64,000 nt of DNA from Chloroflexota bacterium (GCA_021783095.1 JAJXUG010000001.1:119570-183569); one strand, 5' to 3'. Counted from the stretch's first letter, positions 28,996 to 48,365 are shown. The notes: generated from the sequence alone by a model not told the origin. A program made the numbers and translations.

Positions 28996-31524
28996 ATGGC
29001 CACGTTCCCGTCCAGCGCCAAGGTCGTGATCATCGGCGCCGGCATCGTCGGCAACAGCATCGCCTACCACTTGGCGAAGCTGGGCTGGACGGACATCGTC
29101 CAGATCGACAAGGGCCCGCTCCCGAACCCCGGCGGCTCCACCGGCCACGCGTCGAACTTCATCTACCTGGCCGATCACAACAAGGAGATGGCGGAGCTCA
29201 CGCTCGAGTCCGCTCGCCAGTACCGCGAGTGGGACGTCTACACGACGTGCGGCGGCCTCGAGGTCGCCCGGTCGGAGACTCGTCTCGAGGAGCTCCGGCG
29301 CAAGGTGGACTCGGCGAAGAACTGGGGCATCAACGCCTACATGGTGACCCCGGCCGAGATCAAGGAGATGGTCCCGTTCATCAACGAGGAGATCCTCGTC
29401 GGCGGGTTCTTCACGCCCGAGACGGGCGTCTGCGACTCGCTCCAGTTCGGCACCCTCTGCCGCGAGAAGGCCGAGGCGATGGGCGCGCTCCAGAGCTTCG
29501 CCAACACCGAGGTCACCGCGATGGGGGTCGAGGACGGCCGCATCAGGAGCGTGACCACCACCCGCGGCACCATCGAGGCCGAGTACGTCATCATCGCGTG
29601 CGGCGTCTGGGCGCCGCTCCTCGCCGAGATGGCCGGCGCACATATCCCGCTGACCCCGGTCGTCCACCAGATGGCCGACTACGGTCCCGTGCCGCTGTTC
29701 GAGAAGTCGTCCAAGGCGATCGAGTACCCGATCGTCCGCGACATGGACGTGCTCATGTACGAGCGCCAGGACGGCATCGGCTTCGAGGTCGGCTCGTACG
29801 CCCACCGATCGATCCTCCACGACCCGGAGGAGATCCCCTCGATCGAAGAGGCGAAGCTCTCGCCCACCGAGATGCCGTTCACGCAGGAGGACTTCGACCC
29901 CCAGCTCGAGGATGCGCTCGAGCTGTTCCCCGAGATCCTCGGCGACGAGAAGGTGGGCCAGAAGTACGCGATCAACGGCCTCATCTCGCTGACCCCCGAC
30001 GGCATGCCCGTCCTGGGCGAGACGCCCGAGGTCAAGGGCCTCTGGTCCGCCTGCGCCGTGTGGGTCAAGGAGGGCCCGGCAGTCGGCAAGTCGATCGCGG
30101 AGTGGATGACCCACGGCCAGCCCGAGATCGACTGCAACCAGAGCGACATCGCCCGCTTCCATGCGCACCAGAAGACGCGTCAGCACACCAAGGCGCGCGC
30201 CGACGAGGCGTTCCCGAAGACCTACGGCATCGTCCACCCGTCCGAGCAGTACCTCTCGGACCGGCCTGTCCGCAAGACGCCGATGTACGAGTGGCAGAAG
30301 GCGCACGGCGCCGAGTTCTTCGAGGTCGCCGGCTGGGAGCGCGCGCAGTGGTACGGCTCCAACGCGCCGCTGGTCGAGAAGTACGGCATCCAGGCCCGCC
30401 CCAACGAGTGGGACGCTCGCTGGTGGTCGCCCATCATCAACGCCGAGCACCTCGCGATGCGCGAGTCGGCGGGCCTCTTCGACCTCTCGTCGTTCGTGAT
30501 CTTCGACGTCGTCGGCGCGGGTGCGCTGGACACGGTCCAGAAGGTGTGCGTCCGGCAGATGGACGTGGCCGTGGGCCGCGTGGTCTACACGCCGGTCCTC
30601 TCGGTCACGGGCGGCTTCAAGTCCGACCTCACGGTGATGCGCCTCGCCAAGGACCACTTCCGGGTGGTCACCGGCGCCGCCCACGGCATGGCCGACATGA
30701 AGTGGTTCGCCGACAACGCGGCGGACCACACCTCGGTCATCGACCTCACCACGGCGTACACGACCATCGGCCTGTGGGGCCCGAACGCCCGCAAGATCAT
30801 CCAGAAGCTGACCCGCGCGGACATGTCCAACGCGGCCTTCAAGTTCGGCACCTGCAAGACCATCGAGGTCGGCAGCCAGCTTGCCCTCGCCTCGCGCATC
30901 AGCTACGTCGGCGACCTGGGCTGGGAGCTCTACGTCCCGATGGAGCAGGGCCAGCGACTCTGGGACGAGCTCTGGGAGGCCGGGCAGGAGTTCGGCATCA
31001 CCGCCTGCGGGATCGCGGTCTACGTGGGCACGGGCCGCCTCGAGAAGGGCTTCCGCGCCTACGGCACCGAGCTCGACAACGACTACAACCCGGTCGAGGC
31101 GGACATGCTGACGCCCCGGCTCAAGGCCCAGGACTTCATCGGTCGCGCGGCCCTGGAGCAGGCCCTGGGCGAGGAGCGGGCCGCCGTCTGCTGCACGCTC
31201 ACCGTGGACGACCACACGTCGTCGCGGACCGGCGAGAAGCGCTACCCGCTGGGCCGCCAGCCGATCGTGACCCCCGACGGCGCGCCGATCACGGACAGCA
31301 AGGGCCGCCAGTCCTACGCCAACTCGGCGGGCATGGGCCCGTCCCTCGGCAAGTACCTCATCCTGAGCTACCTGCCGCCCGAGCACGCGGTCGAGGGCAC
31401 CAAGCTCGCCGTCCAGTACTTCGGCGACCTCTACCCGGTCACCGTGGCCCGCGTCGGCTCCAAGCCGCTGTTCGACCCCGAGAACGATCGCGTCCGCGGC
31501 ATCGAGCCCGCGGCGGCGGGCTGA
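28996..31524 (+). CDS. Dimethylglycine oxidase/dehydrogenase family protein (FAD-dependent oxidoreductase fused to a GcvT-like tetrahydrofolate-binding domain), paralogue 1
   Basis: N-terminal FAD fingerprint VVIIGAGIVGNSIAYHLAKLG...GGSTGHAS and a C-terminal aminomethyltransferase (GcvT) fold, 842 aa. AAGGAG is 11 nt upstream of ATG 28996. Confidence 0.9.
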   Translation: MATFPSSAKVVIIGAGIVGNSIAYHLAKLGWTDIVQIDKGPLPNPGGSTGHASNFIYLADHNKEMAELTLESARQYREWDVYTTCGGLEVARSETRLEELRRKVDSAKNWGINAYMVTPAEIKEMVPFINEEILVGGFFTPETGVCDSLQFGTLCREKAEAMGALQSFANTEVTAMGVEDGRIRSVTTTRGTIEAEYVIIACGVWAPLLAEMAGAHIPLTPVVHQMADYGPVPLFEKSSKAIEYPIVRDMDVLMYERQDGIGFEVGSYAHRSILHDPEEIPSIEEAKLSPTEMPFTQEDFDPQLEDALELFPEILGDEKVGQKYAINGLISLTPDGMPVLGETPEVKGLWSACAVWVKEGPAVGKSIAEWMTHGQPEIDCNQSDIARFHAHQKTRQHTKARADEAFPKTYGIVHPSEQYLSDRPVRKTPMYEWQKAHGAEFFEVAGWERAQWYGSNAPLVEKYGIQARPNEWDARWWSPIINAEHLAMRESAGLFDLSSFVIFDVVGAGALDTVQKVCVRQMDVAVGRVVYTPVLSVTGGFKSDLTVMRLAKDHFRVVTGAAHGMADMKWFADNAADHTSVIDLTTAYTTIGLWGPNARKIIQKLTRADMSNAAFKFGTCKTIEVGSQLALASRISYVGDLGWELYVPMEQGQRLWDELWEAGQEFGITACGIAVYVGTGRLEKGFRAYGTELDNDYNPVEADMLTPRLKAQDFIGRAALEQALGEERAAVCCTLTVDDHTSSRTGEKRYPLGRQPIVTPDGAPITDSKGRQSYANSAGMGPSLGKYLILSYLPPEHAVEGTKLAVQYFGDLYPVTVARVGSKPLFDPENDRVRGIEPAAAG

Positions 31525-31526
31525 GC

Positions 31527-32291
31527 ATGCGCGTTCTCGTCTGCGTCAAGCGCGTCCCGGCCGTCGCCGGGCGCCTCACCCTCACCGAGGACGAGCGCGC
31601 CCTCGACACCAAGTACGTGGGGTTCCAGGTGGGGCCCCACGAGGAGTGCGCGGTCGAGGAGGCCGTCCGGCTGGTCGAGGCGCACGGCGGTGAGGCCGTC
31701 GTGCTCACCCTGGGTCCGGCCGAGGCCGTCGAGCAGCTGCGCGAGGCCATGGCCATCGGCGCTGCGCGCGCGATCCACCTCGTCACCGACGGCGGCGACT
31801 GGGACGCCGAGTCCACGGCGGGCGCCATCGTCGACGCGATCGGCGAGGATGAGGCCGCGAACGGCCCGTTCGACCTCGTCCTGGTGGGCAACGAGGCCGC
31901 CGACTCCGGCGGCTACCAGGTGGGCGCCCGCATCGGGCGCGCGCTCGGCCGGCCCGTCGTGACCGGGATCAAGGCGCTGTCCGTCGCCGATGGCACCGCC
32001 CGGTGCGAGCAGGAGTCCGGCGGCGGGCGCGACGTCTACGAGGTCCGGACGCCGGCCGTGGTCGCGGTGCTCGAGGGAATCAACCTCCCGCGCTACCCGT
32101 CCGTTCCCGGGCGCATCCGCGCCAAGTCGAAGCCCGTCGCTTCATCCTCGCCCGCCCGCCCGGCGCAGCGCCTCGAGCTGCGGCGCCTGGTCGTGCCGGT
32201 CACGGAGGCCAAGCAGGCGCAGGTGCTGGGCAAGGGCGCCGCGGCGGCGCCGGCCGTGGTCGAGCTCCTGGCCAGCGTGGGGGTGCTCTAG
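31527..32291 (+). CDS. etfB: Electron transfer flavoprotein beta subunit
   Basis: MRVLVCVKRVP...L.DE......N....ALE.A..L family pattern. ATG is 2 nt after the upstream stop. Confidence 0.9.
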   Translation: MRVLVCVKRVPAVAGRLTLTEDERALDTKYVGFQVGPHEECAVEEAVRLVEAHGGEAVVLTLGPAEAVEQLREAMAIGAARAIHLVTDGGDWDAESTAGAIVDAIGEDEAANGPFDLVLVGNEAADSGGYQVGARIGRALGRPVVTGIKALSVADGTARCEQESGGGRDVYEVRTPAVVAVLEGINLPRYPSVPGRIRAKSKPVASSSPARPAQRLELRRLVVPVTEAKQAQVLGKGAAAAPAVVELLASVGVL

Positions 32292-32293
32292 CC

Positions 32294-33256
32294 ATGGCCA
32301 CCGTCCTCGTCCTCATCACCACCGCAGACGGCGCGCCCGACAAGGTGGCGCTCCAGGCCCTCGCCCTGGGCTCCCAGCTCGCGGCGGGCGGGGCCGTCCA
32401 CGCCCTCGTCCTCGGTGACGACGCCGTCGCGGCCGGGCTCGGCGCGTGGGGGGCGACCAACGTCCACCTGGCCAGGCATCCGGCACTCGACGTGCCTGCG
32501 CCCGATGCTGCGGCGCGCATCCTCGACGACCTCGCCGGTTCTCTCGGCGCGCAGTTCGTGGTGGGCCCCGGCACCGAGGAGGGCAACACGATCCTCGCCC
32601 GCAGCGCCGCCCGCGCCGGCCTGCCGTTCGCCGCCAACTGCGTCTCCGTGACAGCCGGCTCGCCGGTCGCCGTCACGCGGAGCCGGTGGGGCGGCAGCCT
32701 CCTCGAGGAGGCGGTGATCAACGCCGACCGGGCCGTCCTCACGGTCGCCGCGCACGTCATCGAGGCCGTCGAGTCCGGCGGCTCCGCGTCCGTGACACCG
32801 TTCACGCCGCAGCTTGACGACGCGGACCTCGCCGTTCGGGTGGTCGGTCGCGTCCCGGCACCGGCCGGCGGCGTGTCGCTCACCGACGCCAAGGTGGTCG
32901 TGGCCGGCGGACGCGGTGCCGGTTCCGCCGAGGGGTTCGCCCCGATCGTGGAGCTCGCCTCGCTGCTCGGGGCGGCCGTCGGCTGCTCCCGCGCGGTGAC
33001 GATCGCCGGCTGGCGCCCGCACACCGAGCAGGTCGGGCAGACCGGCACCAAGATCGCCCCCGACCTGTACATCGCGGCCGGGATCTCAGGCGCCACGCAG
33101 CACCTCGCCGGGACCAAGGGCGCCAAGAGGATCCTCGCGATCAACAAAGACCCCGAGGCGCCGATCATGACGGCGGCCGACTACGCGGTGATCGGGGACC
33201 TGGCCGAGGTCCTGCCCGCGATCAGCGCCGAGATCCGGCGCAGGCGCGGCGCCTGA
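32294..33256 (+). CDS. etfA: Electron transfer flavoprotein alpha subunit
   Basis: C-terminal FAD-binding region VVAGGRGAGS...PDLYIAAGISGATQHLAGTKGAKRILAINKDPEAPI. ATG is 2 nt after the etfB stop. Confidence 0.9.
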   Translation: MATVLVLITTADGAPDKVALQALALGSQLAAGGAVHALVLGDDAVAAGLGAWGATNVHLARHPALDVPAPDAAARILDDLAGSLGAQFVVGPGTEEGNTILARSAARAGLPFAANCVSVTAGSPVAVTRSRWGGSLLEEAVINADRAVLTVAAHVIEAVESGGSASVTPFTPQLDDADLAVRVVGRVPAPAGGVSLTDAKVVVAGGRGAGSAEGFAPIVELASLLGAAVGCSRAVTIAGWRPHTEQVGQTGTKIAPDLYIAAGISGATQHLAGTKGAKRILAINKDPEAPIMTAADYAVIGDLAEVLPAISAEIRRRRGA

Positions 33257-33451: not shown

Positions 33452-34798
33452 GTGATCCGTTCTGGGACGAAGTACCGGATCGCCAGTCTGGCCGCTGCGA
33501 CGGTGCTCTTGGTGAGCGCCTGCGGCGGGTCCAGTGGCTCGAGCCCCGCCGCCACCACCGCGGCGAGCACCGCGCCGAGCTCCGGCGCCAGCCAGGCGGC
33601 CGGGAGTAGCTCGGGCACAGCCGCCACCCAGACCATCAACATCGGAATCGACGGGCCGTTCACCGGCCCCTCAGCGCTCACGGGCACTGAGATGAAGAAT
33701 GCCGCCCAGATGGCCTTCGACGCCATCAACTGGCAGGTCGGCAACTACAAGATCAACCCGATCTACGTGGACGATCAGGCCGATCCGGCCAAGGGCACCG
33801 CCGCGCTCGAGCAGGCGATCGTGGGCCAGAAGCTGGTCGCCGGAATCCTGGACTGGAACAGCTCGGTCGCCGCGGCCGACATGGAGCTCACGGCCAAGTA
33901 CAAGGTCCCCTGGTTCTTCGGGATGGGGGCCGCCGGCGTCGTGAACCAGAAGTTCCTCTCGGACAAGGCCAAGTACGGCTACTGGACCTCCAAGGGCTGG
34001 CCGGACCCGGTCAAGCTGACGGCCGCGTACGTCGGCGCCATCAACGACGCCATCGCGGCGGGCACGTACACCCCCGCGTCCAAGACCGTGGCCATCTACG
34101 GCGAGGACACCGACTGGGGCCGCTCCTTTGGCAAGGGCCTCAAGGACGGCTTCACCGCCAGCGGCTGGACCATCGCGAGCGAGGACTACTTCGCCACCAC
34201 GCAGACCGACTTCTCGGCGCTGATGTCGCGCTACAAGAGCGCCAACGTGCCGGTGATCGCGGGCACGAGCACGGCCGCGGCCTCCATCACCGCCTTCATC
34301 AAGGCTGAGGATGATGCGGGCATCAAGGCCCTGACGGTCGCCGACGGCCTCGGCTGGTTCGGTGACTGGTACAAGATGACCGGCTCGTCCTCGGACTACG
34401 TCCTCGACTCCGTGCCGGGCTTCGCCACCGACAAGGCAAAGAAGTTCCAAGCCGACTACAAGGCCAAGTACGGCTCCGACCCGAGTGCCGCGGCCGCCGG
34501 CCTCTCGTACGACTGGACCAACTTCTTCATCAAGGTCCTGAACTCGACCATCACCGACCAGGGCTCCATCACCAGTGACACGCTGATGAAGGAGGCCCAG
34601 GACAAGCTTTGGACCGGCCAGCTGACCTACACCGACGGGATCATCATGTCGAGCTACGACTTCAACGCAGACTCGATCCCGGACCCCGTCGTGGGCAAGG
34701 GCCACTACATCTTCCCGGTCACCCAGTACCACACCGGCCAGCAGACCGTGATCTGGCCGGCTGACCAGGCCTCGGGCAAGCTCGAGACCAAGCCCTGA
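33452..34798 (+). CDS. ABC transporter substrate-binding lipoprotein, LivJ/Peripla_BP_6 (HAAT) family
   Basis: GTG start with GGAGGAG 8 nt upstream. Lipobox LLVSAC and a Ser/Ala/Thr-rich linker. Type-I periplasmic binding fold pattern (IGIDGPFTG...). Confidence 0.85.
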   Translation: MIRSGTKYRIASLAAATVLLVSACGGSSGSSPAATTAASTAPSSGASQAAGSSSGTAATQTINIGIDGPFTGPSALTGTEMKNAAQMAFDAINWQVGNYKINPIYVDDQADPAKGTAALEQAIVGQKLVAGILDWNSSVAAADMELTAKYKVPWFFGMGAAGVVNQKFLSDKAKYGYWTSKGWPDPVKLTAAYVGAINDAIAAGTYTPASKTVAIYGEDTDWGRSFGKGLKDGFTASGWTIASEDYFATTQTDFSALMSRYKSANVPVIAGTSTAAASITAFIKAEDDAGIKALTVADGLGWFGDWYKMTGSSSDYVLDSVPGFATDKAKKFQADYKAKYGSDPSAAAAGLSYDWTNFFIKVLNSTITDQGSITSDTLMKEAQDKLWTGQLTYTDGIIMSSYDFNADSIPDPVVGKGHYIFPVTQYHTGQQTVIWPADQASGKLETKP

Positions 34799-34864
34799 CG
34801 CCATCCGAGCAACAAGTGGGGGCCGGCATCGCGCCGGCCCCCACTGCACCTAGAGCGAGGCCCC

Positions 34865-35593
34865 ATGGCGCTCCTTGAGCTCGACGGCGTCACCAAGCGG
34901 TTCGGTGGCCTGACAGCCGTCAACAACGTCACGTTCAGCGTCGAAGAGGGCGAGATCTTCGGGCTGATCGGCCCGAACGGCGCCGGCAAGTCCACGCTGC
35001 TCAACTGCCTGGCCGGCGCGCTTCGCCCGAACGCGGGAACCGTCCGCTTCAACGGCAAGAACACGACTGGCCTTCCGGCCGACAAGATGTGCCGCCTGGG
35101 CATCGGCCGCACGTTCCAGATCCCGCGGCCCTTCCCGCGTTTGTCCGTCCTCGAGAACGTCATCGTGGCGGCGTCGTTCGGCGATCCCAGCGCCGAGCAC
35201 GGCATGGCCGCCGACCGGGCGCTCAAGATGCTCCAGTACGTGGACTTCCCGCGCCCCGTGAGCACCGTCGCCGGGCACCTCAACGCGGTCCAGCTCAAGC
35301 GGCTCGACCTCGCCCGTGCCCTGGCCAGCCGCCCCAAGCTGCTGTTCCTCGACGAATTCGCATCGGGCCTCACGCCATCAGAGCTGACGACCATCGCCGC
35401 CCTGCTGCGCAAGATCCGCGATGACGGGGTGACGATCGTGATGGTCGAGCACGTCATGCGCCTGATCCTCGACCTGTGCGAGAACCTCGCGGTCCTCCAG
35501 TACGGCGAGCTCATCGCGCACGGCAACGCCGCGACGGTGGCCCAGGACGAGAAGGTCCGCGAGGCCTATCTCGGCGCCCAATTCATCCTCTGA
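34865..35593 (+). CDS. ABC transporter ATP-binding protein (LivG-like)
   Basis: Walker A GPNGAGKST, Q-loop, signature region and Walker B LLFLDEFASGL. Confidence 0.9.
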   Translation: MALLELDGVTKRFGGLTAVNNVTFSVEEGEIFGLIGPNGAGKSTLLNCLAGALRPNAGTVRFNGKNTTGLPADKMCRLGIGRTFQIPRPFPRLSVLENVIVAASFGDPSAEHGMAADRALKMLQYVDFPRPVSTVAGHLNAVQLKRLDLARALASRPKLLFLDEFASGLTPSELTTIAALLRKIRDDGVTIVMVEHVMRLILDLCENLAVLQYGELIAHGNAATVAQDEKVREAYLGAQFIL

Positions 35594-35621
35594 GCGGCCA
35601 GGGAGGCTCCAGGGAGACATC

Positions 35622-36326
35622 GTGCTCAAACTGACCGCTGTCGAAGCCGGCTACGACCTCCTGCAGGTCCTGTGGGGCGTGGACCTCCACGTCGAGGAGG
35701 GCGAGTTCGTCGCCATCCTGGGACCCAACGGTGCCGGCAAGACCACCACCCTGCGCTCGATCGCGGGCTTCGTGCCGCCGATCCACGGCTCGGTCACGTT
35801 CCGGGGCAAGGAGCTGCGCGGCACCCTCCCGCATCAGGTCAGCCGGATCGGCATCGGCTACGTGTCCGAGAGCCTGAACCTGTTCCCCTCGATGTCGGTC
35901 TACGAGAACCTGCTCGTGGGCGCCTACACGGTCAAGGACAAGAGCGCTGTCGCCGCCACGATGGACACGGTCTTCGAGCTCTTCCCGCGACTGCTCGAGC
36001 GCAAGGACCAGCTGGCGGGCACCCTCTCGGGCGGCGAGCGCAAGATGCTCGCGATCGGCCGCGGCCTGATGCCCAGGCCTTCGCTGCTGCTCGTGGACGA
36101 GCCGAGCCTGGGCCTGGCCCCGATCCCCACGCTCGCGACGTTCGAGGCGCTCAAGACGCTGCGCGAGCGGGGCATGACGATCCTGCTGGTGGAGCAGAAC
36201 GTGAACACGACGCTCCGGATCGTGGACCGCGCATACGTCCTCGAGCAGGGCCGCGTCGTCCTCGAGGGGACCGGCGATGAGCTGCTCGGCAACACCCATG
36301 TCCAGGAAGCGTACCTGGGGATCTGA
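35622..36326 (+). CDS. ABC transporter ATP-binding protein (LivF-like)
   Basis: Walker A GPNGAGKTT, signature LSGGERKMLAIGRGL and Walker B LLLVDEPSLGL. Confidence 0.9.
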   Translation: MLKLTAVEAGYDLLQVLWGVDLHVEEGEFVAILGPNGAGKTTTLRSIAGFVPPIHGSVTFRGKELRGTLPHQVSRIGIGYVSESLNLFPSMSVYENLLVGAYTVKDKSAVAATMDTVFELFPRLLERKDQLAGTLSGGERKMLAIGRGLMPRPSLLLVDEPSLGLAPIPTLATFEALKTLRERGMTILLVEQNVNTTLRIVDRAYVLEQGRVVLEGTGDELLGNTHVQEAYLGI

Positions 36327-36335
36327 GGCAGACCG

Positions 36336-37391
36336 ATGACGACGACCCCCGCCGCTGCCCCGACCAACCTGCGTCGGGTCCCGCTGGCCAAGCGCTTCCT
36401 GACCTTCACCTGGCTCACCGTCGGCCTCGCCATCGCGATCCTGGTGTTCTACACCTTCGTCCAGCCGTCGATCGTGGTCGACACGCTCGTCACGGGCGGC
36501 ATGTGGGCGCTGCTGGCCGCGGGCCTCGCGCTCGTGTTCGGCGTCATGAACATCCCCAACTTCGCCCACGGCGAGTTCTTCATGATCGGCTCGCTGACCG
36601 CGTTCTTCGTCTTCTCGCCCCTCCAGGACGCGATGTTCAACGACCCTGCCGGGACCGGCCTGCTCAAGATCGTCGCCCCCTTCCCGGGCATGATCGCCGC
36701 CCTGATCGTGGGGTTCGCTGTCGGCGCCGTGCTCGAGGTGATCCTGTTCCGGCCCCTGCGCAAGCGGAGCCGGGACCAGTGGGTGATGAACACCTTCCTG
36801 CTGACAGCGGGCGTCTCGGTGGTGCTGATCAACGGCGATCGCCTGATCTTCGGCAACGACTTCCGGGGCGCCACGCGCTACTGGGACGTCCGCCCGATCA
36901 GCATCCTCGGCACCTCGGTCTCGGTCGACCGGATCGCGGTGTTCGTGATCGCGATGGTCACGATCCTGCTGTTCTCGGCGTTCCTGCTGCGCACCCGGAC
37001 CGGGCGGGCGATGCGGGCTGTGGCCCAAGACGAGGCGGGCGCCCAGATGGCGGGCATCAGCCTCAACCGGATCTTCGTGCTGACGATGGGCCTCTCGTGC
37101 GCCCTGGCGGCGCTCGCGGGCGCCTCGCTGCTCTGGCTCTACCCCTCCTACCCAGACGTCGGCCTGCAGCCGCTGTACCTCGCCTGGTACGTGGTCATCC
37201 TCGCCGGTTTGGGGAATGTCCAAGGCGCCATCGTCGGGGCGTTCATCGTGTCCCTGATCCAGACGCTGACCGTGACCTACGTCGGCCTCGACTGGATCGA
37301 CGTCGTGCCCACCCTGTTCATCATCCTGATCCTGCTGTTCAAGCCGTCGGGCCTGTTCGGCAGCGAAGTGAAAGGCGTCTGGGAGCAGTAG
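36336..37391 (+). CDS. Branched-chain amino acid-type ABC permease (LivH-like)
   Basis: 8-10 TM helices with the HAAT permease pattern (FAHGEFFMIGS...). Confidence 0.85.
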   Translation: MTTTPAAAPTNLRRVPLAKRFLTFTWLTVGLAIAILVFYTFVQPSIVVDTLVTGGMWALLAAGLALVFGVMNIPNFAHGEFFMIGSLTAFFVFSPLQDAMFNDPAGTGLLKIVAPFPGMIAALIVGFAVGAVLEVILFRPLRKRSRDQWVMNTFLLTAGVSVVLINGDRLIFGNDFRGATRYWDVRPISILGTSVSVDRIAVFVIAMVTILLFSAFLLRTRTGRAMRAVAQDEAGAQMAGISLNRIFVLTMGLSCALAALAGASLLWLYPSYPDVGLQPLYLAWYVVILAGLGNVQGAIVGAFIVSLIQTLTVTYVGLDWIDVVPTLFIILILLFKPSGLFGSEVKGVWEQ

Positions 37392-40816: not shown

Positions 40817-43333
40817 TCAACCGCGCATGCGCAGGTTGTCGGGGTCGAAGACCGGGGTGGCACCCACCGCCGCCACCGAGACCGGATACAGCTCGCCGAT
40901 GTACTCGACGGCCAGCGGCCGCCCCACGACGGCATCATCGACCGGGAGGTATGCCATGAGCAGGTGCCTGCCCACCGATGGCCCCGATGCGGTGGTGGTC
41001 ACGAATGAGCGGCGGCCGCGCCGGTCGACCAGGACCGAGCCGTCGGGTCGGCAGATCGGCTCGCGGCCGAGCATGAACCGCCGTTCCCCGGACGCCGAGG
41101 TGTGGTCCTCCACTGCAAGCGTGCACAGCAGGCTCGCCGGCCCCTCGGCACGTTGCGCGAGGTAAGCCGCCCTGCCGATGAAGTCGGCCGCCTTGACGCG
41201 TGGCCGGGCGAGACCGGCCTCGACGAGGTTCCGGTCCAGCTCGAGATCGCTGCCCATGAGGCGGTAGCCCTTCTCCACCCGCAGGGTCCCGCCGTAGGCG
41301 GCGAGGCCGACTGGCGCGATCCCGTGGGCCCTCCCCGCCGCCATGAGGATGTCCCACAGCCGGGCGCCCTGCTCCGTCGGGACGTGCAGCTCCCAGCCCA
41401 GTTCGCCGACATAGCTGATCCGCGCGGCCAGCACCCGCACCGACTCAACGTCGATCGGCAGGCAGCTGCCGTACGGCAGAGCGGCATCGGACACGTCGTC
41501 GGCCGTCACAGAGGCGACCACGTCGCGGGCGCGCGGTCCCCAGATGGCGATCATCGTGAAGGCTGACGTGAGGTCTGCGAAGGTGACGCCCCCGCCCCCC
41601 GGGAGGTGGTCCGTCAGCCACTTCGCGTCGGCGCGGCCAGCGAAGCCGGCGTCCACGATCCTGAAGTGGTCGTGGCCGAGCCGCATGATCGTCACGTCGG
41701 CCTTGATCCCGCCGGCATCGTTGAGCAGCTGCGTGTAGACGAGGCGCCCCACGGGAACGTCGACCTGGCCGACCACCATGTGCTGCAGCCAGTCGAGCCC
41801 GCCGGGACCAGACACGTCGAACTCGGCGAACGCGGGGTTCTCGATGAGGCCAACGCGCTCGCGGAGCGCGAGGTGCTCAGCGTTGACGATCGGCGACCAC
41901 CACCGCCGGTCCCACTCGTGCGATCGGTCCATCACCCGGTCGCCGAACTCCTCGAGCAGCGGGGCGTTGCTGCGGTACCAGTTGGGCCGCTCCCAGCCTG
42001 AGATCTCCACGAACTCGCCGCCGAGGGCGACGTGCCGGTCGTGGGCGGCGCCGAGCCGCACGTTGCGGTCCGTCGCCCACTGCTCGAAGGGGTGCACGAT
42101 GCCGTAGAACTTGGGGAACAGCTCACCCACCCGGTGCTCGACGTGGTAGCGCGTCTTCTGCGTGTCGGAGAAGCGGGCGATGTTGACCGACGCCGGGTCC
42201 ATCTCGGGCTTGCCGTCGGTCATCCACTCCGCGAGCATCCGGACGATGGACGGAGCCTCCTTGATCCAGACGGCCGCGCACGCCCAGAGCCCCTTGACCT
42301 CCGGCGTCTCGCCGAGCAGGGACATCCCGTCCGGCGTGAACGACATGAGGCCGTTGATGGCGTGCTTGATGCCCACCCTCTCGTCGCCCACGATCGTGGG
42401 GTAGAGCTCGAGCACCGTCTCCACGTACGGGTCGAAGTGCTCCGAGGTGAAGGGCAGCTCGGTCGGGGACATCAGCGCTTGGTCGTTGGACGGGATGTCC
42501 TCCGGCTGCACCACGAGCGCCTCGTGCGCGTACGACCCGATCTCGAGGTCCGCGCCGCTCTGGCGCGCGTACATCTTGGCGTCCATGTCGCGGACCACCG
42601 GGTAGGCCAGCGGGTTGTCCAGCGCCGCGAACTCGGGCACCGGCCCGATGTCCACCATCTGGTGGACGGCCGGCACGAGCGGGATGGTGGCGCCCGCCAT
42701 TGCGGCGACCTTGCGGCTCCAGACGCCGCCGCACACGACGACCACGTCCGCGTGGACCGTGCCTCGGGTTGTCCGGACCGCGGTGATCCGGCCATCCGTG
42801 ACGTCGAGGCCCGTGACCTCCGTGTTGGCGAAGCTCCGCAGCGCCCCGAGCTCCATGGCCTTCTCGCGATACAGCGTGCCGGCGTGGAGCGGGTCAACGA
42901 CGCCGACATCGGGCGTGTGGAAGCCCCCGAGGATCCTGGACTCGTCCATGTACGGGACGAGCGCCTTGACCCGAGCCGGGTCCAGCACCTCAGCGTCGAC
43001 GCCCCAGCTGTGGGCCAGCGCAAGTCGCCGGTAGAGCTCGTGCATGCGCTCGCGCGTCCGGGCGATCTCGATGCCGCCGGTGCGCGTGAACGTGCCGAGG
43101 TCCTCGAACTCGCAAATGCTCTCGATGGACCAGATCGAGGTCTGGCGCGAGTGGTCCACCGCGAACGTGAAGGACGAGGCGTGGCCGGTGGACCCGCCCG
43201 GGTTCGGGAGCGGACCCTTGTCCACCTGGACGATGTCCCGCCAGCCGAGCCGGGCGAGGTGCCACGCCAAGCCGTTGCCGACGATGCCGGCCCCAATGAC
43301 CACCACCCGTGCCCGAACCGGAAGCTCGCTCAT
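40817..43333 (-). CDS. Dimethylglycine/sarcosine dehydrogenase family protein (FAD plus GcvT-like domain), paralogue 2
   Basis: MSELPVRARVVVIGAGIVGNGLAWHLARLGW...GGSTGHASSF, 838 aa. Start at 43333 with GGAG upstream; the 946-aa ORF is over-extended. Confidence 0.85.
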   Translation of the reverse strand: MSELPVRARVVVIGAGIVGNGLAWHLARLGWRDIVQVDKGPLPNPGGSTGHASSFTFAVDHSRQTSIWSIESICEFEDLGTFTRTGGIEIARTRERMHELYRRLALAHSWGVDAEVLDPARVKALVPYMDESRILGGFHTPDVGVVDPLHAGTLYREKAMELGALRSFANTEVTGLDVTDGRITAVRTTRGTVHADVVVVCGGVWSRKVAAMAGATIPLVPAVHQMVDIGPVPEFAALDNPLAYPVVRDMDAKMYARQSGADLEIGSYAHEALVVQPEDIPSNDQALMSPTELPFTSEHFDPYVETVLELYPTIVGDERVGIKHAINGLMSFTPDGMSLLGETPEVKGLWACAAVWIKEAPSIVRMLAEWMTDGKPEMDPASVNIARFSDTQKTRYHVEHRVGELFPKFYGIVHPFEQWATDRNVRLGAAHDRHVALGGEFVEISGWERPNWYRSNAPLLEEFGDRVMDRSHEWDRRWWSPIVNAEHLALRERVGLIENPAFAEFDVSGPGGLDWLQHMVVGQVDVPVGRLVYTQLLNDAGGIKADVTIMRLGHDHFRIVDAGFAGRADAKWLTDHLPGGGGVTFADLTSAFTMIAIWGPRARDVVASVTADDVSDAALPYGSCLPIDVESVRVLAARISYVGELGWELHVPTEQGARLWDILMAAGRAHGIAPVGLAAYGGTLRVEKGYRLMGSDLELDRNLVEAGLARPRVKAADFIGRAAYLAQRAEGPASLLCTLAVEDHTSASGERRFMLGREPICRPDGSVLVDRRGRRSFVTTTASGPSVGRHLLMAYLPVDDAVVGRPLAVEYIGELYPVSVAAVGATPVFDPDNLRMRG

Positions 43334-43412
43334 CGTGACTCCGTGGCAATTCTGGCGCAAGATCGGCTGCTTCCGCCGAGCGCCTCGCGGGGATTCTGCG
43401 CCGTCGGCCGTG

Positions 43413-45827
43413 TCAAGCCCGCACACGCTCGTTCGCCGCGTCCCAGACCGGCGCCGCCAGGACCGTCGCCCGGCGGCGGTCCCCGAGCAGCGCGATCTCG
43501 AGCGCCGTGCCGGGCGCCTCGTGCCCGCTCGCGACGTACGCGAACGCGAGGCTCCGGCCCGTCGCATGGCCATACCCGCCCGAGGTCGTGACCCCGATCG
43601 GGTCCCCGCCCGCGAACACGGGCTCGCCACCGGCCACGTCGAAGTCGAGCGCGTCAACCTCGAGGTAGACGAGGTGCGTGGTCGCGCCGGCGGCCAGCGC
43701 CGCCTCGAGCGCCGCGCGACCCGTGAAGGCGTGGTCGAGCTTCACGAAGCGCATCGTGTCCGCCTCGACCGGGGTGGCCTCGTTGGTGAGCTCGACGCCC
43801 CAGCCCTTGTAGGCCTTCTCCAGCCTGAGGCTGTTCATGGCGTACAGGCCGAAGTCCGCGATCCCCACCGGCTGGCCCGCGGCCCAGATGGCGTCGTAGA
43901 GCGCCGGGGCGCTGGCCATCGGGACGTGGAGCTCCCAGCCCAGCTCGCCCACGTAGTTCACCCGCAGCGCCTTGACGGGGACGCCGGCGACCTCGATCTC
44001 GCGGCCGGTCAGCCACGGGAATGCCGCGGTGGCGAGGTCGGCGGCCGTGAGCGGCGCGAGCAGATCCCGCGAGCGTGGGCCGGCCACGATGAGCGTGGTG
44101 AAGTCCTCGGTCCGGTCGGTGATCTCGACATCCTCGCCGGCCAGGATGGCCGAGCGCAGCAGGTCGAGGTCGCGCTGGTGCGCCGTGGCGCCCGAGAGCA
44201 GGAAGAACCGGTCCGGGGCGAGGCGGGTGATCGTGGTTTCGGTGGCGAAGCGGCCGTTGGCCGAGAGCGCATGGGCCAGCACGATCCCGCCCAGCTTGGG
44301 CATCCGGTTGGCGTAGACGCGGTTGAGGAGCGCCTCCGCGTCGGCCCCGCGGACGCCGTACGTGGCGAACGACGGCAGCTCCATCACGCCCACGCGCTCG
44401 CGGACCGCGGCGCACTCGACGGCCACGACGTCGAAGACGTTGTTCCGGCGGAAGGTGCCGTCCTCGTCGCGTCCGTCGAGGCTGAACCACTTCGGCCGCT
44501 CCCAGCCGAAGCCCTCGGTGAACACGCAGCCCTTGGCGGCCAGGCGCTCGAACAGCGGACTCCTCTTCGCGGGCCGGCCCTCCGGGCGCTCCTCGCCGGG
44601 TGGGATCAGCCGGTACATGTCCCAGTACTCGCGGTGGGCCTTCGCCTGGACGTAGGCCTTGTCGGCGTATCTGCCGTATCGGCGCGGGTCCATGCCCAGC
44701 ATGTTCACCTCGGCGTCGCCGTGGACCATCTGCTGGGCGAGGAAGCGCCCGCAGCCCGGCCCCTGCGCGATGCCGATGCCGGTCCCGGTGGCGAGCCAGA
44801 AGTTGCGCACGCCGGGCGCCGGCCCGACGAGCGGGTTGCTGTCGGGCGTGTGGCTGATGGCGCCGTTGACCACGCGCTTGATGCCCGCCTCGGCGAGGAT
44901 CGGCATCCGCTCCATGACGCGCTCGAGGTTGGGCAGGATGCGGTCCAGCTGCGGCTCGAACAGCTCGTGGTCGGACTCCCACGGCGGGGTCTGGCCGCCC
45001 CAGCCCTCCTCGGTGTCGTGGTCCTCGTAGATCCCGATGAGCGCCGACTTCTGCTCCTCGCGGTAGTACGAGGAGGCCCACGGGTCGCGCATGACGGGGA
45101 TCTCGCCGGGGCGGTCGAGGAACTCCCTGACGGGGCCGGTGACCACGTACTGGTGCTTGATGTTGGCGAACTGCGTCGAGACGTCCAGCCAGGCCGACAC
45201 CTTGTCGGCGTAGCAGCCCGCGGCATTGACCACGTGCTCTGCCGTGATGTCGCCCAGCTCTGTGCGGACGCGGAACTCGCCGGACGCCAGGCGCTCGATG
45301 CCGAGCGCCCGATTATGACGCGTGATCGTGGCGCCGAGCCCGCGCGACAGCTTCGACATCGCGTTGCAGGCGGAACTCGGGTCCACGTACCCGTCGTCGA
45401 GCGTCCACGCCCCGGCGAGCACGCCCTCGGTGGTGACGAACGGGTTGATCCGGCGAATCTCGTCCGGCCCGACGACCTGCATGCGGAATCCCATGAGGGC
45501 GGCGACGCCCTCGACCCGCTTGAAGTGATCGAGCTCCATCTGGTTCATGGCGAACCGGATGCCGCCGCTCGCGTGCCAGCCGGTGGCCTCGCCGGTCATC
45601 CCCTCGAGCTTGGCGTACAGGTCGTTCGAGTAGGCGTGGACCTTGGCGAGGGTGTAGTTGGCGATGAACGAGGGGCACTGACCCGCCGCGTGCCAAGTCG
45701 AGCCCGACGTGAGCTCGCCCTTCTCGATCAGCACGGTGTCGGTCCAGCCCTCGAGCGCGAGCCCGTACTGGAGACTGATCCCCATGACGCCACCGCCGAC
45801 GATGACGACGCGCGCCCGGTCCTGCAC
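43413..45827 (-). CDS. Dimethylglycine/sarcosine dehydrogenase family protein (FAD plus GcvT-like domain), paralogue 3
   Basis: MQDRARVVIVGGGVMGISLQYGLALEGW...SGSTWHAAG, 804 aa. A very strong SD GGAGGAGGAGG lies immediately upstream of ATG 45827. Confidence 0.85.
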   Translation of the reverse strand: MQDRARVVIVGGGVMGISLQYGLALEGWTDTVLIEKGELTSGSTWHAAGQCPSFIANYTLAKVHAYSNDLYAKLEGMTGEATGWHASGGIRFAMNQMELDHFKRVEGVAALMGFRMQVVGPDEIRRINPFVTTEGVLAGAWTLDDGYVDPSSACNAMSKLSRGLGATITRHNRALGIERLASGEFRVRTELGDITAEHVVNAAGCYADKVSAWLDVSTQFANIKHQYVVTGPVREFLDRPGEIPVMRDPWASSYYREEQKSALIGIYEDHDTEEGWGGQTPPWESDHELFEPQLDRILPNLERVMERMPILAEAGIKRVVNGAISHTPDSNPLVGPAPGVRNFWLATGTGIGIAQGPGCGRFLAQQMVHGDAEVNMLGMDPRRYGRYADKAYVQAKAHREYWDMYRLIPPGEERPEGRPAKRSPLFERLAAKGCVFTEGFGWERPKWFSLDGRDEDGTFRRNNVFDVVAVECAAVRERVGVMELPSFATYGVRGADAEALLNRVYANRMPKLGGIVLAHALSANGRFATETTITRLAPDRFFLLSGATAHQRDLDLLRSAILAGEDVEITDRTEDFTTLIVAGPRSRDLLAPLTAADLATAAFPWLTGREIEVAGVPVKALRVNYVGELGWELHVPMASAPALYDAIWAAGQPVGIADFGLYAMNSLRLEKAYKGWGVELTNEATPVEADTMRFVKLDHAFTGRAALEAALAAGATTHLVYLEVDALDFDVAGGEPVFAGGDPIGVTTSGGYGHATGRSLAFAYVASGHEAPGTALEIALLGDRRRATVLAAPVWDAANERVRA

Positions 45828-45875
45828 GGTGCCTCCTCCTCCCGCGCGCGGGCGGGTTCCTCGTCGCCCCTGTGC

Positions 45876-48365
45876 TCAGGCGCGAATGCGGGCGTTGGTG
45901 GGGTCGTACGGCGCCCGGAGCGATGCCCTGGCGCCGAAGCGCTCCGTCCCGATCTCGAGCTCATAACGGCCGGCCGCGATCCAGTCCGCGGTCACCGGAC
46001 CGTCCTTGCGCCTGACGTAGCCCAGACCGATCGACCGCCCCAGTGTGTGCCCGAACATCGCCGACGTGATCCAGCCGACGAGCTCCCCATCGCGCCAGAT
46101 GGGCTCGTTGTGGTACATGAGCGGCTCCGGGTCGTCGAGGACGAAGACTGTCAGCCGCCGGGTCGCACCTGCCTCGCGCTGGAGCAGGAGGGCCTCACGG
46201 CCGATGAAGCCCCCGGGCTTGTCCCACGCGGCGGTGAAGGCGAGGCCAGCCTCGACGAGGGTGTCCTCGTCGCTCATGTCGTGACCCCAGTGGCGGTACG
46301 CCTTCTCGATGCGCAGGCTGTTGAGCGCGTGGTAGCCAGCGTGCCTGAGCCCAAATGGCGCGCCCGCCTCGACGACGGCGTCGTACACGTGGGTCGCGAA
46401 CTCGCTCGGGACGTACAGCTCCCACCCCAGCTCACCCACATAGGTGGTGCGGGCGGCGCGGGCGAACGCGTAGCCGAGGTCGATCTCGCGGGCGGCACCG
46501 AAGGGGAACGCGGCGTTCGACAGGTCGGCATCGGTCATTGACGCCAGGAGCTCGCGCGAACGCGGCCCCATGACGCCGATGACGGTCTCGCCGGACGTGA
46601 CGTCGGTGACGACCACCCGCGCGTCGGGGTGGATGCTGCGGCGCAGCCAGTCCTGGTCGCGGACGGTCTGCGTGCCCGTCGTCACGACCAGGAACCGGTC
46701 CTCGGCGAGCCTGGTCACGGTCACGTCGGCCTCGACCCCGCCCCGCTCGTTGCACCACTGGGAGTACACGATCCGCCCGGGCTCGACGTCGACGTCGGCG
46801 GTGCAGACGCGGTTGAGCTCGCGCGCGGCGTCGCGGCCGGCCACCAGCACCTTGCCGAAGCTGGTCTGGTCGAACAGCGCCACGCTCTCGCGCGTCGCGC
46901 GGTGCTCCTCGGCCGAGTGCGGGAACCAGTTCTGGCGCCCGTAGCTGTACTCGTAGCGGGGCTCGACGCCGTCGGGCGCATACCAATTGGCGCGCTCCCA
47001 GCCGGCCACCTCGCCGAAGCAGGCGCCCCGGGCTGCGAGCCGGTCGTGGAGCGTCGAGCGGCGGATGCCGCGGGCGGTCTCGACCTGACGGAACGGCCAG
47101 TGCATCTCGTAGAGCAGCCCGAGGGTCTCGGTCGTACGCTCGTACAGGTAGCGGCGGTTGCGCTGGAACGGCATGAACCGCCGGATGTCAACCTCCCACA
47201 GGTCCATCGGCGGGCGGCCGTCCACCACCCAGTCGGCCACGGCCCTCCCCGCGCCGCCGCCCGACGCGAAGCCGACCGAGTTGAACCCGGCCGCGACGAA
47301 GTAGCCCGGGAGCTGCGGCGCCTCGCCGAGGATGTAGCGGTCGTCGGGCGTGAAGCTCTCGGGCCCGTTGAAGAACAGCTGGATGCCGACCTGGCCGAAC
47401 ACGGGCAGCCGCTTGGCGGCCTTGACGATGTACGGCTCGAGGTGGTCCCAGTCCTGGGGCAGGGTCAGGAACTCGGCGTCCTCGGGGATGCCCTCGGTCG
47501 CCCACGGCTTCGCGCCCGGCTCGAAGAAGCCGATCATGAGCTTGCCGGCCTCGTTGCGCGCGTACGCCTGCTCGTCGGGCATCCGCAGGGCGGGAAGGTC
47601 CGGGGTGAGCTGCTCGATGGGCTCGGTGATCAGGTAGAAGTGCTCCGCGGCGTGGAGCGGGACGACGACGTCGTCCTGACCGGCCAGCTGCCGCGCCCAC
47701 ATGCCCGTGCAGTTGACGACGACCTCGCAGTCGATCGTCCCGCGGTCCGTCTCCACCCCCGCCACGCGCCCGTCGCGCTGGATGATCCGCGTCGCCTTGG
47801 TGTTCTCGAAGACGAGTGCGCCGGCCATCTTCGCCGCCTTGGCGAGCGCCATCGTGGTGTCGGTCGGGTTCGCCACGCCATCGCCGGGGATGAACGCGGC
47901 GCCGATGATCCCCTCGGTGTTGAGCAGCGGCCACATCTCGCCTAGGCGCTCGGGGCCGATGAACTCCATGTCCACGTTCTGGAGCCGGGCCATCGACGCG
48001 TTCCGCCGGATCTCGTCCCAGCGCCCTGGCGTGTGCGCCACGAGCACCGATCCCGTCTGGATAAACCCCGTGCTGTCCCCCGTCTGGCGCTCGAGCTCAC
48101 GGAACAGGTCCTTCGCGTAACTCGCGAGGACCGTCATGTTGTAGGTCGCCCGGAGCTGTCCGACGAGGCCGGCTGCGTGCCAGGTCGTTCCGCTCGTCAG
48201 GCGCTTGCGCTCGAGCAGCACGACGTCCTTCCATCCCCGCTGCGTGAGGTGGAAGAGCACGCTCGTCCCGACGATGCCGCCACCGATGACGACGACACGG
48301 GCCTGCTTGGGGAACGCGGGCGCGCCGGCGCCCCCGGCAATGGCGGTGGGCGACCCGTCCGACAT
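45876..48365 (-). CDS. Dimethylglycine/sarcosine dehydrogenase family protein (FAD plus GcvT-like domain), paralogue 4
   Basis: ARVVVIGGGIVGTSVLFHLTQRGW...SGTTWHAAG, 829 aa from MSDGSP (48365) with GAGGAG 9 nt upstream. Confidence 0.85.
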   Translation of the reverse strand: MSDGSPTAIAGGAGAPAFPKQARVVVIGGGIVGTSVLFHLTQRGWKDVVLLERKRLTSGTTWHAAGLVGQLRATYNMTVLASYAKDLFRELERQTGDSTGFIQTGSVLVAHTPGRWDEIRRNASMARLQNVDMEFIGPERLGEMWPLLNTEGIIGAAFIPGDGVANPTDTTMALAKAAKMAGALVFENTKATRIIQRDGRVAGVETDRGTIDCEVVVNCTGMWARQLAGQDDVVVPLHAAEHFYLITEPIEQLTPDLPALRMPDEQAYARNEAGKLMIGFFEPGAKPWATEGIPEDAEFLTLPQDWDHLEPYIVKAAKRLPVFGQVGIQLFFNGPESFTPDDRYILGEAPQLPGYFVAAGFNSVGFASGGGAGRAVADWVVDGRPPMDLWEVDIRRFMPFQRNRRYLYERTTETLGLLYEMHWPFRQVETARGIRRSTLHDRLAARGACFGEVAGWERANWYAPDGVEPRYEYSYGRQNWFPHSAEEHRATRESVALFDQTSFGKVLVAGRDAARELNRVCTADVDVEPGRIVYSQWCNERGGVEADVTVTRLAEDRFLVVTTGTQTVRDQDWLRRSIHPDARVVVTDVTSGETVIGVMGPRSRELLASMTDADLSNAAFPFGAAREIDLGYAFARAARTTYVGELGWELYVPSEFATHVYDAVVEAGAPFGLRHAGYHALNSLRIEKAYRHWGHDMSDEDTLVEAGLAFTAAWDKPGGFIGREALLLQREAGATRRLTVFVLDDPEPLMYHNEPIWRDGELVGWITSAMFGHTLGRSIGLGYVRRKDGPVTADWIAAGRYELEIGTERFGARASLRAPYDPTNARIRA

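Follow-up and report, generated by a model that had tools for sequence, protein, structure and literature searches.

Why should a single locus encode four enzymes of one N-demethylase family? The window analyzed here, a 64,000-nt stretch, 72% in G+C, of the genome of an uncultured Limnocylindrales (Chloroflexota) bacterium, carries four paralogous genes, D1 to D4, related to dimethylglycine dehydrogenase (DMGDH) and dimethylglycine oxidase (DMGO). An earlier note on this DNA took the four copies to imply additional substrates, or a division of the enzymes between O2 and electron transfer flavoprotein (ETF) as electron acceptor. We read domain content, conserved residues, clade membership and synteny directly, and we infer substrates, ETF coupling and operon structure. 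Our preferred reading, held with slightly better than even confidence, is that the locus is a choline/glycine-betaine catabolic island with parallel demethylase sets, in which D1-D4 play the roles proposed below.

Four intact members of an FAD/folate-dependent family

D1 lies on the plus strand (28996-31524, 842 amino acids), and D2 (40817-43333, 838 amino acids), D3 (43413-45827, 804 amino acids) and D4 (45876-48365, 829 amino acids) are arrayed on the minus strand, where the gaps described earlier are confirmed as 48 nt between D4 and D3 and 79 nt between D3 and D2. All four reading frames are the high-GC3 frames, and an identical metagenome contig, on which genes were called independently, has them at the same lengths. 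A GGAG-type motif stands 6-11 nt before each start (AGAGGAG, GGGAGGAGGAGG and ACGGAG in the array, AAGGAG for D1), in agreement with the earlier claim that every gene has its own Shine-Dalgarno sequence.

Each protein combines in a single chain the domains DAO (PF01266), FAO_M (PF16350), GCV_T (PF01571) and GCV_T_C (PF08669), in that order; we defined the family architecture as those four domains in one chain of about 800-860 amino acids. Pfam E values run from 1e-51 to 1e-69 for DAO and from 1e-63 to 1e-84 for GCV_T. The GCV_T_C match of D2, at 25.4 bits, is marginally under the Pfam cut-off of 25.9 bits, and D4 has an additional SoxG match. Each protein aligns end to end with both Arthrobacter globiformis DMGO (PDB 1pj5) and human DMGDH (5l46). 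With the GxGxxG motif and the DAO and GCV_T domains present throughout, the FAD fingerprint and the folate fold are kept in all four copies, as had been stated.

The residue that binds FAD covalently, to which the earlier note had drawn attention, is His in D1-D4 and in every aligned clade member (H51 of D1 corresponds to His48 of DMGO and His91 of human DMGDH), and covalent flavinylation is predicted from this conserved position. The His/Tyr dyad (His225 and Tyr259 in DMGO) is unchanged throughout D1-D4 and the 188 clade sequences. At the folate-site position of DMGO Asp552, D1, D2 and D4 have Asp and D3 has Glu, as do human DMGDH and all 82 D3-clade sequences. D1 and D2 share the four-domain architecture and each of these residues with DMGO. 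Of 55 family-invariant columns, each protein retains 54-55; the deviations number 0-1 per protein, with none in D2, compared with 2-3 in two characterized references. Degenerate copies, which the earlier note had envisaged, are thus not found among them, and D1-D4 are four intact members of the FAD/folate-dependent N-demethylase family.

A GcvT-like folate domain is also common to SoxA, the alpha subunit of heterotetrameric sarcosine oxidase, and matches to TIGR01372 and to PDB 2gag/1vrq cover the C-terminal halves of D1-D4. However, their TIGR01372 scores are 143-191 bits against a cut-off of 1164, and they differ from SoxA in having an N-terminal DAO type fused in one chain. No soxB, soxD or soxG gene is present in the window.

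Three old orthologue groups

Mutual identities among D1-D4 are 31-54%, with D1 and D2 at 54%. A bootstrapped NJ tree of 73 representatives joins D1, D2 and DMGO in a superclade (bootstrap 100) and groups D1 with D2 (95), with DMGO in a clade separate from either. The D2 clade, the D4 clade, the superclade of D3 with human DMGDH and the superclade of DMGDH with D4 each receive 100, and the exact sister relation between D3 and human DMGDH is weakly supported (29-61). Scores against solved relatives differ between the paralogues: D1 matches DMGO at 502 bits and DMGDH at 306, D2 has DMGO as its best solved relative (513 bits), D3 matches human DMGDH at 583 bits and DMGO at 302, and D4 scores 450 bits with DMGDH and 394 bits with DMGO. 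The clade-fixed motifs are STGHASN in D1, STGHASS in D2, STWHAAG with Glu552 in D3 and human DMGDH, and TTWHAAG with Asp552 in D4. As judged by these sequences, D1-D4 are ancient paralogues in three orthologue groups (D1+D2, D3 and D4), with no recent expansion. That all four might share one characterized specificity, an outcome the earlier note had allowed for, does not agree with three well-supported clades whose best solved relatives differ.

D3 is the closest of the four to mammalian DMGDH (human 5l46, rat 4pab), with which it has STWHAAG and the Glu at the D552 position in common, and it differs from the mammalian enzymes in being bacterial and having no mitochondrial presequence. By score and superclade, D3 is of the dimethylglycine dehydrogenase type (EC 1.5.8.4), with a predicted substrate. 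The mammalian enzyme depends on both ETF and THF (PMC5082570). The deepest branch of the D4 clade is a gene like that for 4-methylaminobutanoate oxidase (MABO) of the pAO1-type nicotine plasmid, and D4 is 43% identical to the FAD oxidoreductase gene between purU and folD in Arthrobacter sp. NtRootA4; we use this plasmid-borne purU-mabO-folD operon gene as the MABO reference, its identity as MABO being taken from the operon. Unlike the MABO gene, D4 stands among betaine-pathway genes with a DMGDH-type partner, and not among nicotine, purU or folD genes.

The JGI cluster name for D3 is 'dimethylglycine dehydrogenase', and the labels that JGI assigns automatically to D4 orthologues give '4-methylaminobutanoate oxidase' and in no case sarcosine dehydrogenase. 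Public labels are inconsistent in general ('FAD-dependent oxidoreductase', 'GcvT family protein', 'sarcosine oxidase gamma subunit', '4-methylaminobutanoate oxidase'). For annotation, the 'dimethylglycine dehydrogenase-like' genes of betaine islands can be treated as at least three old orthologue groups with neighbours of their own.

Gene neighbourhood and a putative betaine pathway

A putative corrinoid-dependent betaine demethylase set occupies 21547-27576 on the minus strand, its five parts recognized by domain: an MttB-family protein (21547-23016; PF06253, 754 bits), a RACo/RamA activase with RACo domains (23085-25124), a pterin methyltransferase (25140-26057; Pterin_bind), a DUF1638 protein (26054-26902) and a corrinoid protein with a B12-binding domain (26899-27576). 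A GntR/FCD regulator (28047-28724, minus strand; GntR and FCD domains) is divergent from D1, and a GntR homologue holds the same position in one relative locus (L105). Directly downstream of D1, on the plus strand, come etfB for the ETF beta subunit (31527-32291; PF01012 ETF, E 8e-26), which starts 3 nt past the D1 stop, and then etfA for the alpha subunit (32294-33256; PF00766 ETF_alpha and PF01012). The plus strand also carries a Liv-type ABC importer (33452-38422; Peripla_BP_6, two ABC_tran and two BPD_transp_2), with its binding protein at 33452-34798, ATPases at 34865-35593 and 35622-36326, and permeases at 36336-37391 and 37391-38422; the same set adjoins D3/D2 in close relatives. A DAO-only flavoprotein of 412 amino acids, without the folate domain (38474-39712, plus strand; PF01266, E 2e-56), is kept beside the array in relatives, and one source labels it D-amino-acid dehydrogenase.

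On the minus strand, a 235-amino-acid protein with CBS (two stretches) and BON domains (39819-40526) is encoded 284 nt downstream of D2 and is probably a separate unit. At the other end of the array, 229 nt upstream of D4, the BetI-like regulator reported earlier is borne out by a gene with TetR_N and 'BetI-type' TetR_C_6 domains (48595-49200, minus strand), and relatives likewise have this regulator upstream of D4/D3. It is accompanied upstream, on the same strand, by a betB-like aldehyde dehydrogenase (50484-51932; Aldedh, E 3e-153) and a betA-like GMC oxidoreductase (51962-53626; GMC_oxred_N and GMC_oxred_C), in an order identical to that of two relative loci (L005 and L006). A promoter and terminator scan of 39700-49400 gave nothing above the shuffled expectation, and operon boundaries consequently follow from gap sizes only.

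In the pathway that we propose, BetA and BetB would form glycine betaine from choline. The corrinoid system, composed of the MttB-family protein, corrinoid protein, pterin methyltransferase, RACo activase and DUF1638 protein, would then transfer the first methyl group to tetrahydrofolate (THF), yielding dimethylglycine, and the last two N-methyl groups would be removed by the DMGDH/DMGO-family FAD/THF enzymes. These would oxidize an N-methyl group at the covalent FAD, with THF receiving the C1 unit in the GcvT-like domain and EtfBA the electrons. D3 would carry out the DMGDH-type conversion of dimethylglycine to sarcosine, and D4, its conserved partner, most likely the step from sarcosine to glycine. 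D1, of the DMGO clade, would be tied to the corrinoid module as an ETF-linked dehydrogenase, probably acting on dimethylglycine and/or sarcosine; D2, its lineage-restricted sister, may have an overlapping or slightly shifted specificity. DMGDH and DMGO both turn over sarcosine too, although poorly (PMC5082570). Separate regulators would serve the two sets, the BetI-type TetR protein for D4-D3-D2 and the GntR/FCD protein for D1-etfBA. To our knowledge, DMGO and MABO, relatives at 40-45%, are the only bacterial members of the four clades to have been assayed, so that substrates are assigned here from context. Should D3 and D4 be enough for the last two steps, D1 and D2 are explained only as a parallel set.

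The proposed first step has a counterpart in Ruegeria pomeroyi: aerobic betaine catabolism in that bacterium requires MtgBCD, RamA and DUF1638, and genes for the dimethylglycine and sarcosine steps are often co-located with these (PMC12478193). Counterparts of all five listed parts (MtgB, RamA, MtgD, DUF1638 and MtgC) are present at 21547-27576, a likeness by part list. The window differs from the R. pomeroyi system in holding all parts in one operon-like cluster, divergent beside D1-etfBA, and neither mtgE nor metF2 was seen in the window. SAR11 also has a predicted pair of paralogous FAD/THF enzymes, dmgdh and sardh, encoded near each other and acting after the first betaine demethylation (PMC3160333), but its first step uses BHMT and not MtgBCD. 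The locus would extend the recently described aerobic, cobalamin-dependent route of betaine demethylation to an uncultured Chloroflexota lineage; we found no relevant paper in the literature on Limnocylindria and betaine.

The D3/D4 pair and the D1-etfBA module

Among the relative loci with enough flank, D3 and D4 are both present in 33 of 47 and lie within 2.5 kb of each other in 26, and this pairing spans Chloroflexota, Alpha- and Gammaproteobacteria and others. A window-type MttB cluster abuts the pair in three loci (L013, L038, L074), and etf genes are near D3/D4 orthologues in two more (L017 and L031). Relatives also have, between D4 and D3, a distant MttB homologue that the window lacks. 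In R. pomeroyi, the predicted dimethylglycine and sarcosine dehydrogenases are likewise encoded by nearby genes, SPO3400 and SPO3396 (PMC4744692), and the D3/D4 pair matches them in arrangement, a likeness of gene layout. Gene context, which is what the assignment draws on, makes sarcosine the most likely substrate of D4, a candidate sarcosine dehydrogenase (EC 1.5.8.3), an enzyme for which no solved structure is known. The neighbours of D4-clade genes vary in Alphaproteobacteria: in Phaeobacter the gene follows hydantoinase A/B, and in S. meliloti it has a taurine cluster on one side and an aminoethylphosphonate (AEP) cluster on the other. The PbfB/C/D N-methyl-AEP oxidoreductases, considered as D4-clade relatives on account of the S. 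meliloti context, were discarded as DAO-only proteins with no folate domain (PMC10590968).

D1 is the only paralogue that adjoins etfBA in the window; no etf genes stand beside D2, D3 or D4. Its orthologues are 50-62% identical, and etfB is the next gene in 35 of 50 loci. The orthologue on Haloarcula pHH400 (51%) has etfBA downstream as well. Mtg-cluster genes are found upstream of D1 orthologues in 16 of 36 loci, often facing, as in the window. This synteny sets D1 apart from DMGO, pointing to a dehydrogenase rather than an oxidase, and D1 is probably ETF-linked.

Acceptors, decay and additional substrates

The proposed difference in electron acceptors would make the DMGO-like D1 and D2 oxygen-reactive oxidases, and D3 and D4 ETF-dependent dehydrogenases; the only characterized oxidase of the family, Arthrobacter DMGO, is indeed the one closest to D1 and D2. 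However, the residues at the flavinylated His read HAP in DMGO, HAS in D1 and D2, and HAA in D3, D4 and human DMGDH. A Pro after this His occurs in DMGO and a DMGO-like metagenome sequence, in contrast to Ser in all D1- and D2-clade members. Pro/Val in the oxidase has been contrasted with Ala/Ile in the dehydrogenase (PMC5082570), where we take the Pro to be DMGO Pro50. D1 and D2 thus lack the oxidase-type Pro of a dimethylglycine oxidase (EC 1.5.3.10), and the recurrence of etfBA behind D1 orthologues, Haloarcula included, argues against the split, which we regard as quite improbable. Decay of some copies into functionless duplicates is barely credible. Nothing was found in its favour beyond the dispensability of D2, which some relatives at 88% identity (L005, L006) lack, and it is opposed by four full-length, high-GC3 genes with near-complete invariant columns and by intact D2 orthologues at 66-98% pairwise identity.

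Do the four copies then imply additional substrates? As a general conclusion from copy number this is not supported, with both the D3/D4 pair and the D1-etfB module conserved; it follows from their conservation that at least three of the four paralogues stand in betaine-pathway contexts. A narrower form would have D3 and D4 cover dimethylglycine and sarcosine, and D1 and/or D2 demethylate other N-methylated amines imported by the adjacent Liv-type ABC system; such amines could include N-methylproline, 4-methylaminobutanoate and compounds resembling N-methyl-taurine or N-methyl-AEP. In support, the betaine pathway would need no more than the D3/D4 pair, MABO provides a non-glycine enzyme within the family, and D2 forms its own narrow clade with 21 clade-fixed differences from D1, including N to S two positions after the flavinylated His, and orthologues in varied contexts. 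Against this, the conserved partners of D1 are the betaine-specific Mtg cluster and etfBA and no other pathway, the median D2-to-D1 identity of 53% lies inside the D1-clade range of 49-100%, and in the window, as in L088/L090, D2 follows D4-D3 genes that are linked to betaine. The substrates that the earlier note had sought in other MttB-family reactions lose their source: the 64,000-nt window holds a single MttB-family gene and no second one, so no other MttB reaction is encoded there. N-methylproline from proline betaine gained no support either. The enolase-superfamily gene beside D2 orthologues (L091, L096), examined as a HpbD-type (hydroxy)proline betaine epimerase, scores 66 bits with 2pmq/4h2h versus 148 with the uncharacterized isomerases 4dye/2oqh, is not specifically HpbD-like and is absent from the window. 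We consider the narrower form doubtful, with a minority chance of being right, mainly as regards D2.

Orthologues at least 70% identical to D2 were found only in close relatives and at varying positions, with no conserved gene context among their loci; one has its own GntR regulator (L004). A still more tentative proposal, which we think unlikely, is that D2 represents a Limnocylindrales-restricted, ETF-linked, DMGO-like and THF-dependent demethylase clade whose substrate might now be an N-methyl amine distinct from dimethylglycine and sarcosine. In its favour, every D2 member found is intact, clade-fixed changes lie beside the flavinylated His and at other positions of the FAD domain, and the neighbourhoods of D2 vary (behind D3, with the GntR regulator or beside the enolase-superfamily enzyme). 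As a weaker corollary, corrinoid-dependent betaine demethylation in haloarchaea and non-marine bacteria may have as its true partner the D1-etfBA module and not a DMGDH-type enzyme.

The arrangement as such is ordinary: its gene groups and their neighbourhoods are found again in many other microbes, and it constitutes no new system or mechanism. Clusters with at least three paralogues make up 8 of 158 loci, and replicons of Haloarcula, Sinorhizobium and Shinella carry 3-5 copies.

Four intact paralogues in two superclades

We found that D1–D4, the four DMGDH/SARDH/DMGO-family genes with FAD and GcvT domains, are real and intact. They are paralogues that diverged long ago within a known family, and their pathway island is of a known type, though one previously undescribed in the window's lineage. 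The names of 90%-identity clusters and the nearest genomes assign the fragment to a 'Candidatus Limnocylindrales' (Chloroflexota) MAG. G+C is about 72% across the window and most long open reading frames are therefore spurious; coding frames were chosen by third-position GC. D1 (28996–31524, plus strand, 842 aa) is followed directly by etfB-etfA, while D4 (45876–48365, 829 aa), D3 (43413–45827, 804 aa) and D2 (40817–43333, 838 aa) form a minus-strand array with gaps of 48 nt (D4–D3) and 79 nt (D3–D2). All four lengths are identical in the gene calls on the matching public metagenome contig, each start is preceded by a GGAG-type motif, and the D4 start lies 229 nt from an upstream BetI-type TetR gene on the minus strand, so that the gene arrangement described in the earlier note is borne out. 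Each protein has the Pfam domain order DAO, FAO_M, GCV_T, GCV_T_C (in D2, GCV_T_C is marginally under the cut-off), and none of the four reached an NCBIfam equivalog cut-off.

All four keep the GxGxxG motif, the flavinylation His (His48 of DMGO, the Arthrobacter dimethylglycine oxidase), the His225/Tyr259 dyad (DMGO numbering) and an acidic residue at the position of Asp552 in DMGO. At the 55 columns that are at least 95% conserved in a 205-sequence alignment, D1, D2, D3 and D4 deviate 1, 0, 1 and 1 times, and two characterised references deviate 2 and 3 times; none of the four is a decaying duplicate.

D1 and D2 are 54% identical, and D1 is 31–33% identical to D3 or D4. Among solved relatives, D1 and D2 score 502 and 513 bits against DMGO and 306 and 287 bits against DMGDH (dimethylglycine dehydrogenase); D3 scores 302 bits against DMGO and 583 bits against human DMGDH, and D4 394 and 450 bits. 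We built a neighbor-joining tree of 73 representatives (100 bootstraps), with references transcribed from alignments and a pAO1-type gene resembling 4-methylaminobutanoate oxidase (MABO) added. One superclade contains DMGO, D1 and D2 (bootstrap 100; D1+D2 95, D2 clade 100), and the other (100) unites a group of D3 and human DMGDH (100) with the D4 clade (100), in which the MABO-like gene is the deepest branch. The clade-fixed motif around the flavinylated His is STSHAPG in DMGO, STGHASN in the D1 clade, STGHASS in the D2 clade, STWHAAG in D3 and human DMGDH and TTWHAAG in the D4 clade; the D552 position holds Glu in D3 and human DMGDH and Asp in the others. The D1 clade itself spans 49–100%, a range that D2-to-D1 divergence (median 53%) overlaps, and 21 differences between D1 and D2 are clade-fixed. 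The earlier note had named tight grouping with one specificity and lost catalytic residues as the ways in which its observation might fail; the four fall into separate, well-supported clades and the flavinylation His, His/Tyr dyad and folate-site acid are present throughout, and consequently the observation stands.

Conserved neighbourhoods of D3 and D4

Scanning genomes with D3 gave 80 loci (54–88% identity), in Chloroflexota, Alpha- and Gammaproteobacteria, Woeseiaceae and other groups. Among the 47 with at least 4 kb on either side, 33 also carry a D4 orthologue (within 2.5 kb in 26), and 22 carry a distant MttB-family gene, 24–28% identical to the window's MttB-family protein and often between D4 and D3. 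The window lacks this gene, and only 48 nt separate its D4 and D3; elsewhere the gene lies between or beside the D4 and D3 orthologues, in L007, L009, L012 and L168 and in many Proteobacterial loci (e.g. L025, L033–L035, L045). A window-type Mtg cluster, the corrinoid betaine demethylase genes, adjoins D3/D4 in L013, L038 and L074. In L167, from another Chloroflexota genome, the D3 orthologue precedes a 700-aa Oxidored_FMN + Pyr_redox_2 protein (12442–14544) with an architecture like that of DgcA/StcD, and a CBS+BON gene lies nearby, as in the window.

D4-clade genes of Alphaproteobacteria occur in mixed contexts, and specificity may differ among members of the clade. Orthologues of 53–54% identity are flanked by taurine and 2-aminoethylphosphonate catabolic clusters in Sinorhizobium meliloti (L169) and follow hydantoinase A/B and Liv-type ABC transporter genes on a Phaeobacter inhibens plasmid (L086). 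JGI automatic names of D4 orthologues are MABO or generic.

Conserved neighbourhoods of D1 and D2

With D2 as the query, a metagenome scan recovered mainly D1-type genes (50–62%). etfB lies within 600 nt downstream of D1-type genes at 35 of 50 loci, and Mtg-cluster genes lie upstream at 16 of 36, in the divergent layout of the window. On Haloarcula hispanica pHH400, a 51% identical D1 orthologue precedes etfBA, near folate-C1 genes, a BCCT transporter and further paralogues. D2-type genes (at least 70% identity) were found in close relatives only, at varying positions: 3′ of D3 (window, L088, L090), behind a GntR gene (L004), adjoining the Mtg cluster (L013, L096) or adjoining an enolase-superfamily gene (L091, L096); relatives L005 and L006 lack one. 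In L004, an 84–88% identical relative, a divergent GntR/FCD regulator (7626–8288, minus strand) separates D3 from D2, which there is outside the D4-D3 unit.

A proposed betaine pathway island

In the window, a corrinoid set on the minus strand (21547–27576: MttB-family, RACo/RamA, pterin methyltransferase, DUF1638 and B12-binding corrinoid proteins) lies behind a GntR/FCD gene and runs divergently to D1. Its MttB-family protein matches PF06253 (754 bits), and the window has no second MttB-family gene. The part list matches the MtgB/MtgC/MtgD/RamA/DUF1638 system, which Ruegeria pomeroyi was recently shown to need for the aerobic catabolism of glycine betaine (PMC12478193); here all MtgBCD-type parts lie in one cluster of a Chloroflexota genome, the system having been described in 2025 for marine Proteobacteria. 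Upstream of the array are minus-strand genes for a betA-like GMC oxidoreductase (51962–53626), a betB-like aldehyde dehydrogenase (50484–51932) and a DsbA-like protein; a plus-strand Liv-type ABC importer lies 3′ of D1-etfBA.

The simplest reading of the window is an island for choline → betaine → dimethylglycine → sarcosine → glycine, for which we infer the substrates, ETF coupling and transcripts. D3 would be a DMGDH-type enzyme and D4 its conserved partner, a candidate for the sarcosine step; their pairing matches the predicted dimethylglycine/sarcosine dehydrogenase pairs of R. pomeroyi (SPO3400/SPO3396, four genes apart; PMC4744692) and SAR11 (PMC3160333). D1 is a DMGO-clade enzyme that its synteny links to ETF and to the corrinoid demethylase, and D2 is a narrow sister lineage of D1. 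The two demethylase sets lie behind different regulators. Because both DMGDH and DMGO accept sarcosine poorly (PMC5082570), functional overlap between the enzymes is plausible.

The earlier note had read the four copies as a sign of additional N-methylated substrates or of distinct electron acceptors. We found no support for this reading, as three of the four copies lie in betaine-pathway synteny; the idea may still hold mainly for D2. The proposed split between O2 and ETF is disfavoured by D1 and D2, which are without the oxidase-type Pro, and by etfBA adjoining D1. The lead to proline betaine failed, since the enolase-superfamily gene beside D2 orthologues is not specifically HpbD-like. This MR_MLE gene lies directly 3′ of D2 orthologues (L091 6307–7257, L096 2068–3249), and its assignment as HpbD was rejected, its best solved relatives being the uncharacterised isomerases 4dye and 2oqh.

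Additional features and multi-copy clusters

Three high-GC3 minus-strand frames of the window (11644–14256, 870 aa; 14256–16250, 664 aa; 56469–57476, 335 aa) are without a Pfam match at E ≤ 1e-5. The TetR-D4 intergenic region (48366–48594) contains a stretch, TGTGAATTCGTAATATTGCGATGTTATGATCC, that is AT-rich although the genome has 72% G+C. This stretch is a possible promoter or operator; a sigma-70 consensus scan yielded nothing. The gene of a 412-aa DAO-only flavoprotein (38474–39712, plus strand) closes the run of ABC transporter genes and is conserved next to the array in all close relatives; the protein may be a monomeric enzyme that oxidises sarcosine or amino acids.

Multi-copy clusters of the DMGDH/DMGO family are common: at least three family genes lie within about 10 kb at 8 of 158 loci, and Haloarcula, Sinorhizobium and Shinella replicons carry 3–5 copies. 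L151 and L165 (about 280–12500) have an independent array of the same family, three tandem DMGO-like paralogues with 33%, 37% and 58–59% identity to D1, one of which keeps the DMGO-type HAP motif; etfBA lies downstream in L165, and L151 ends before that point.
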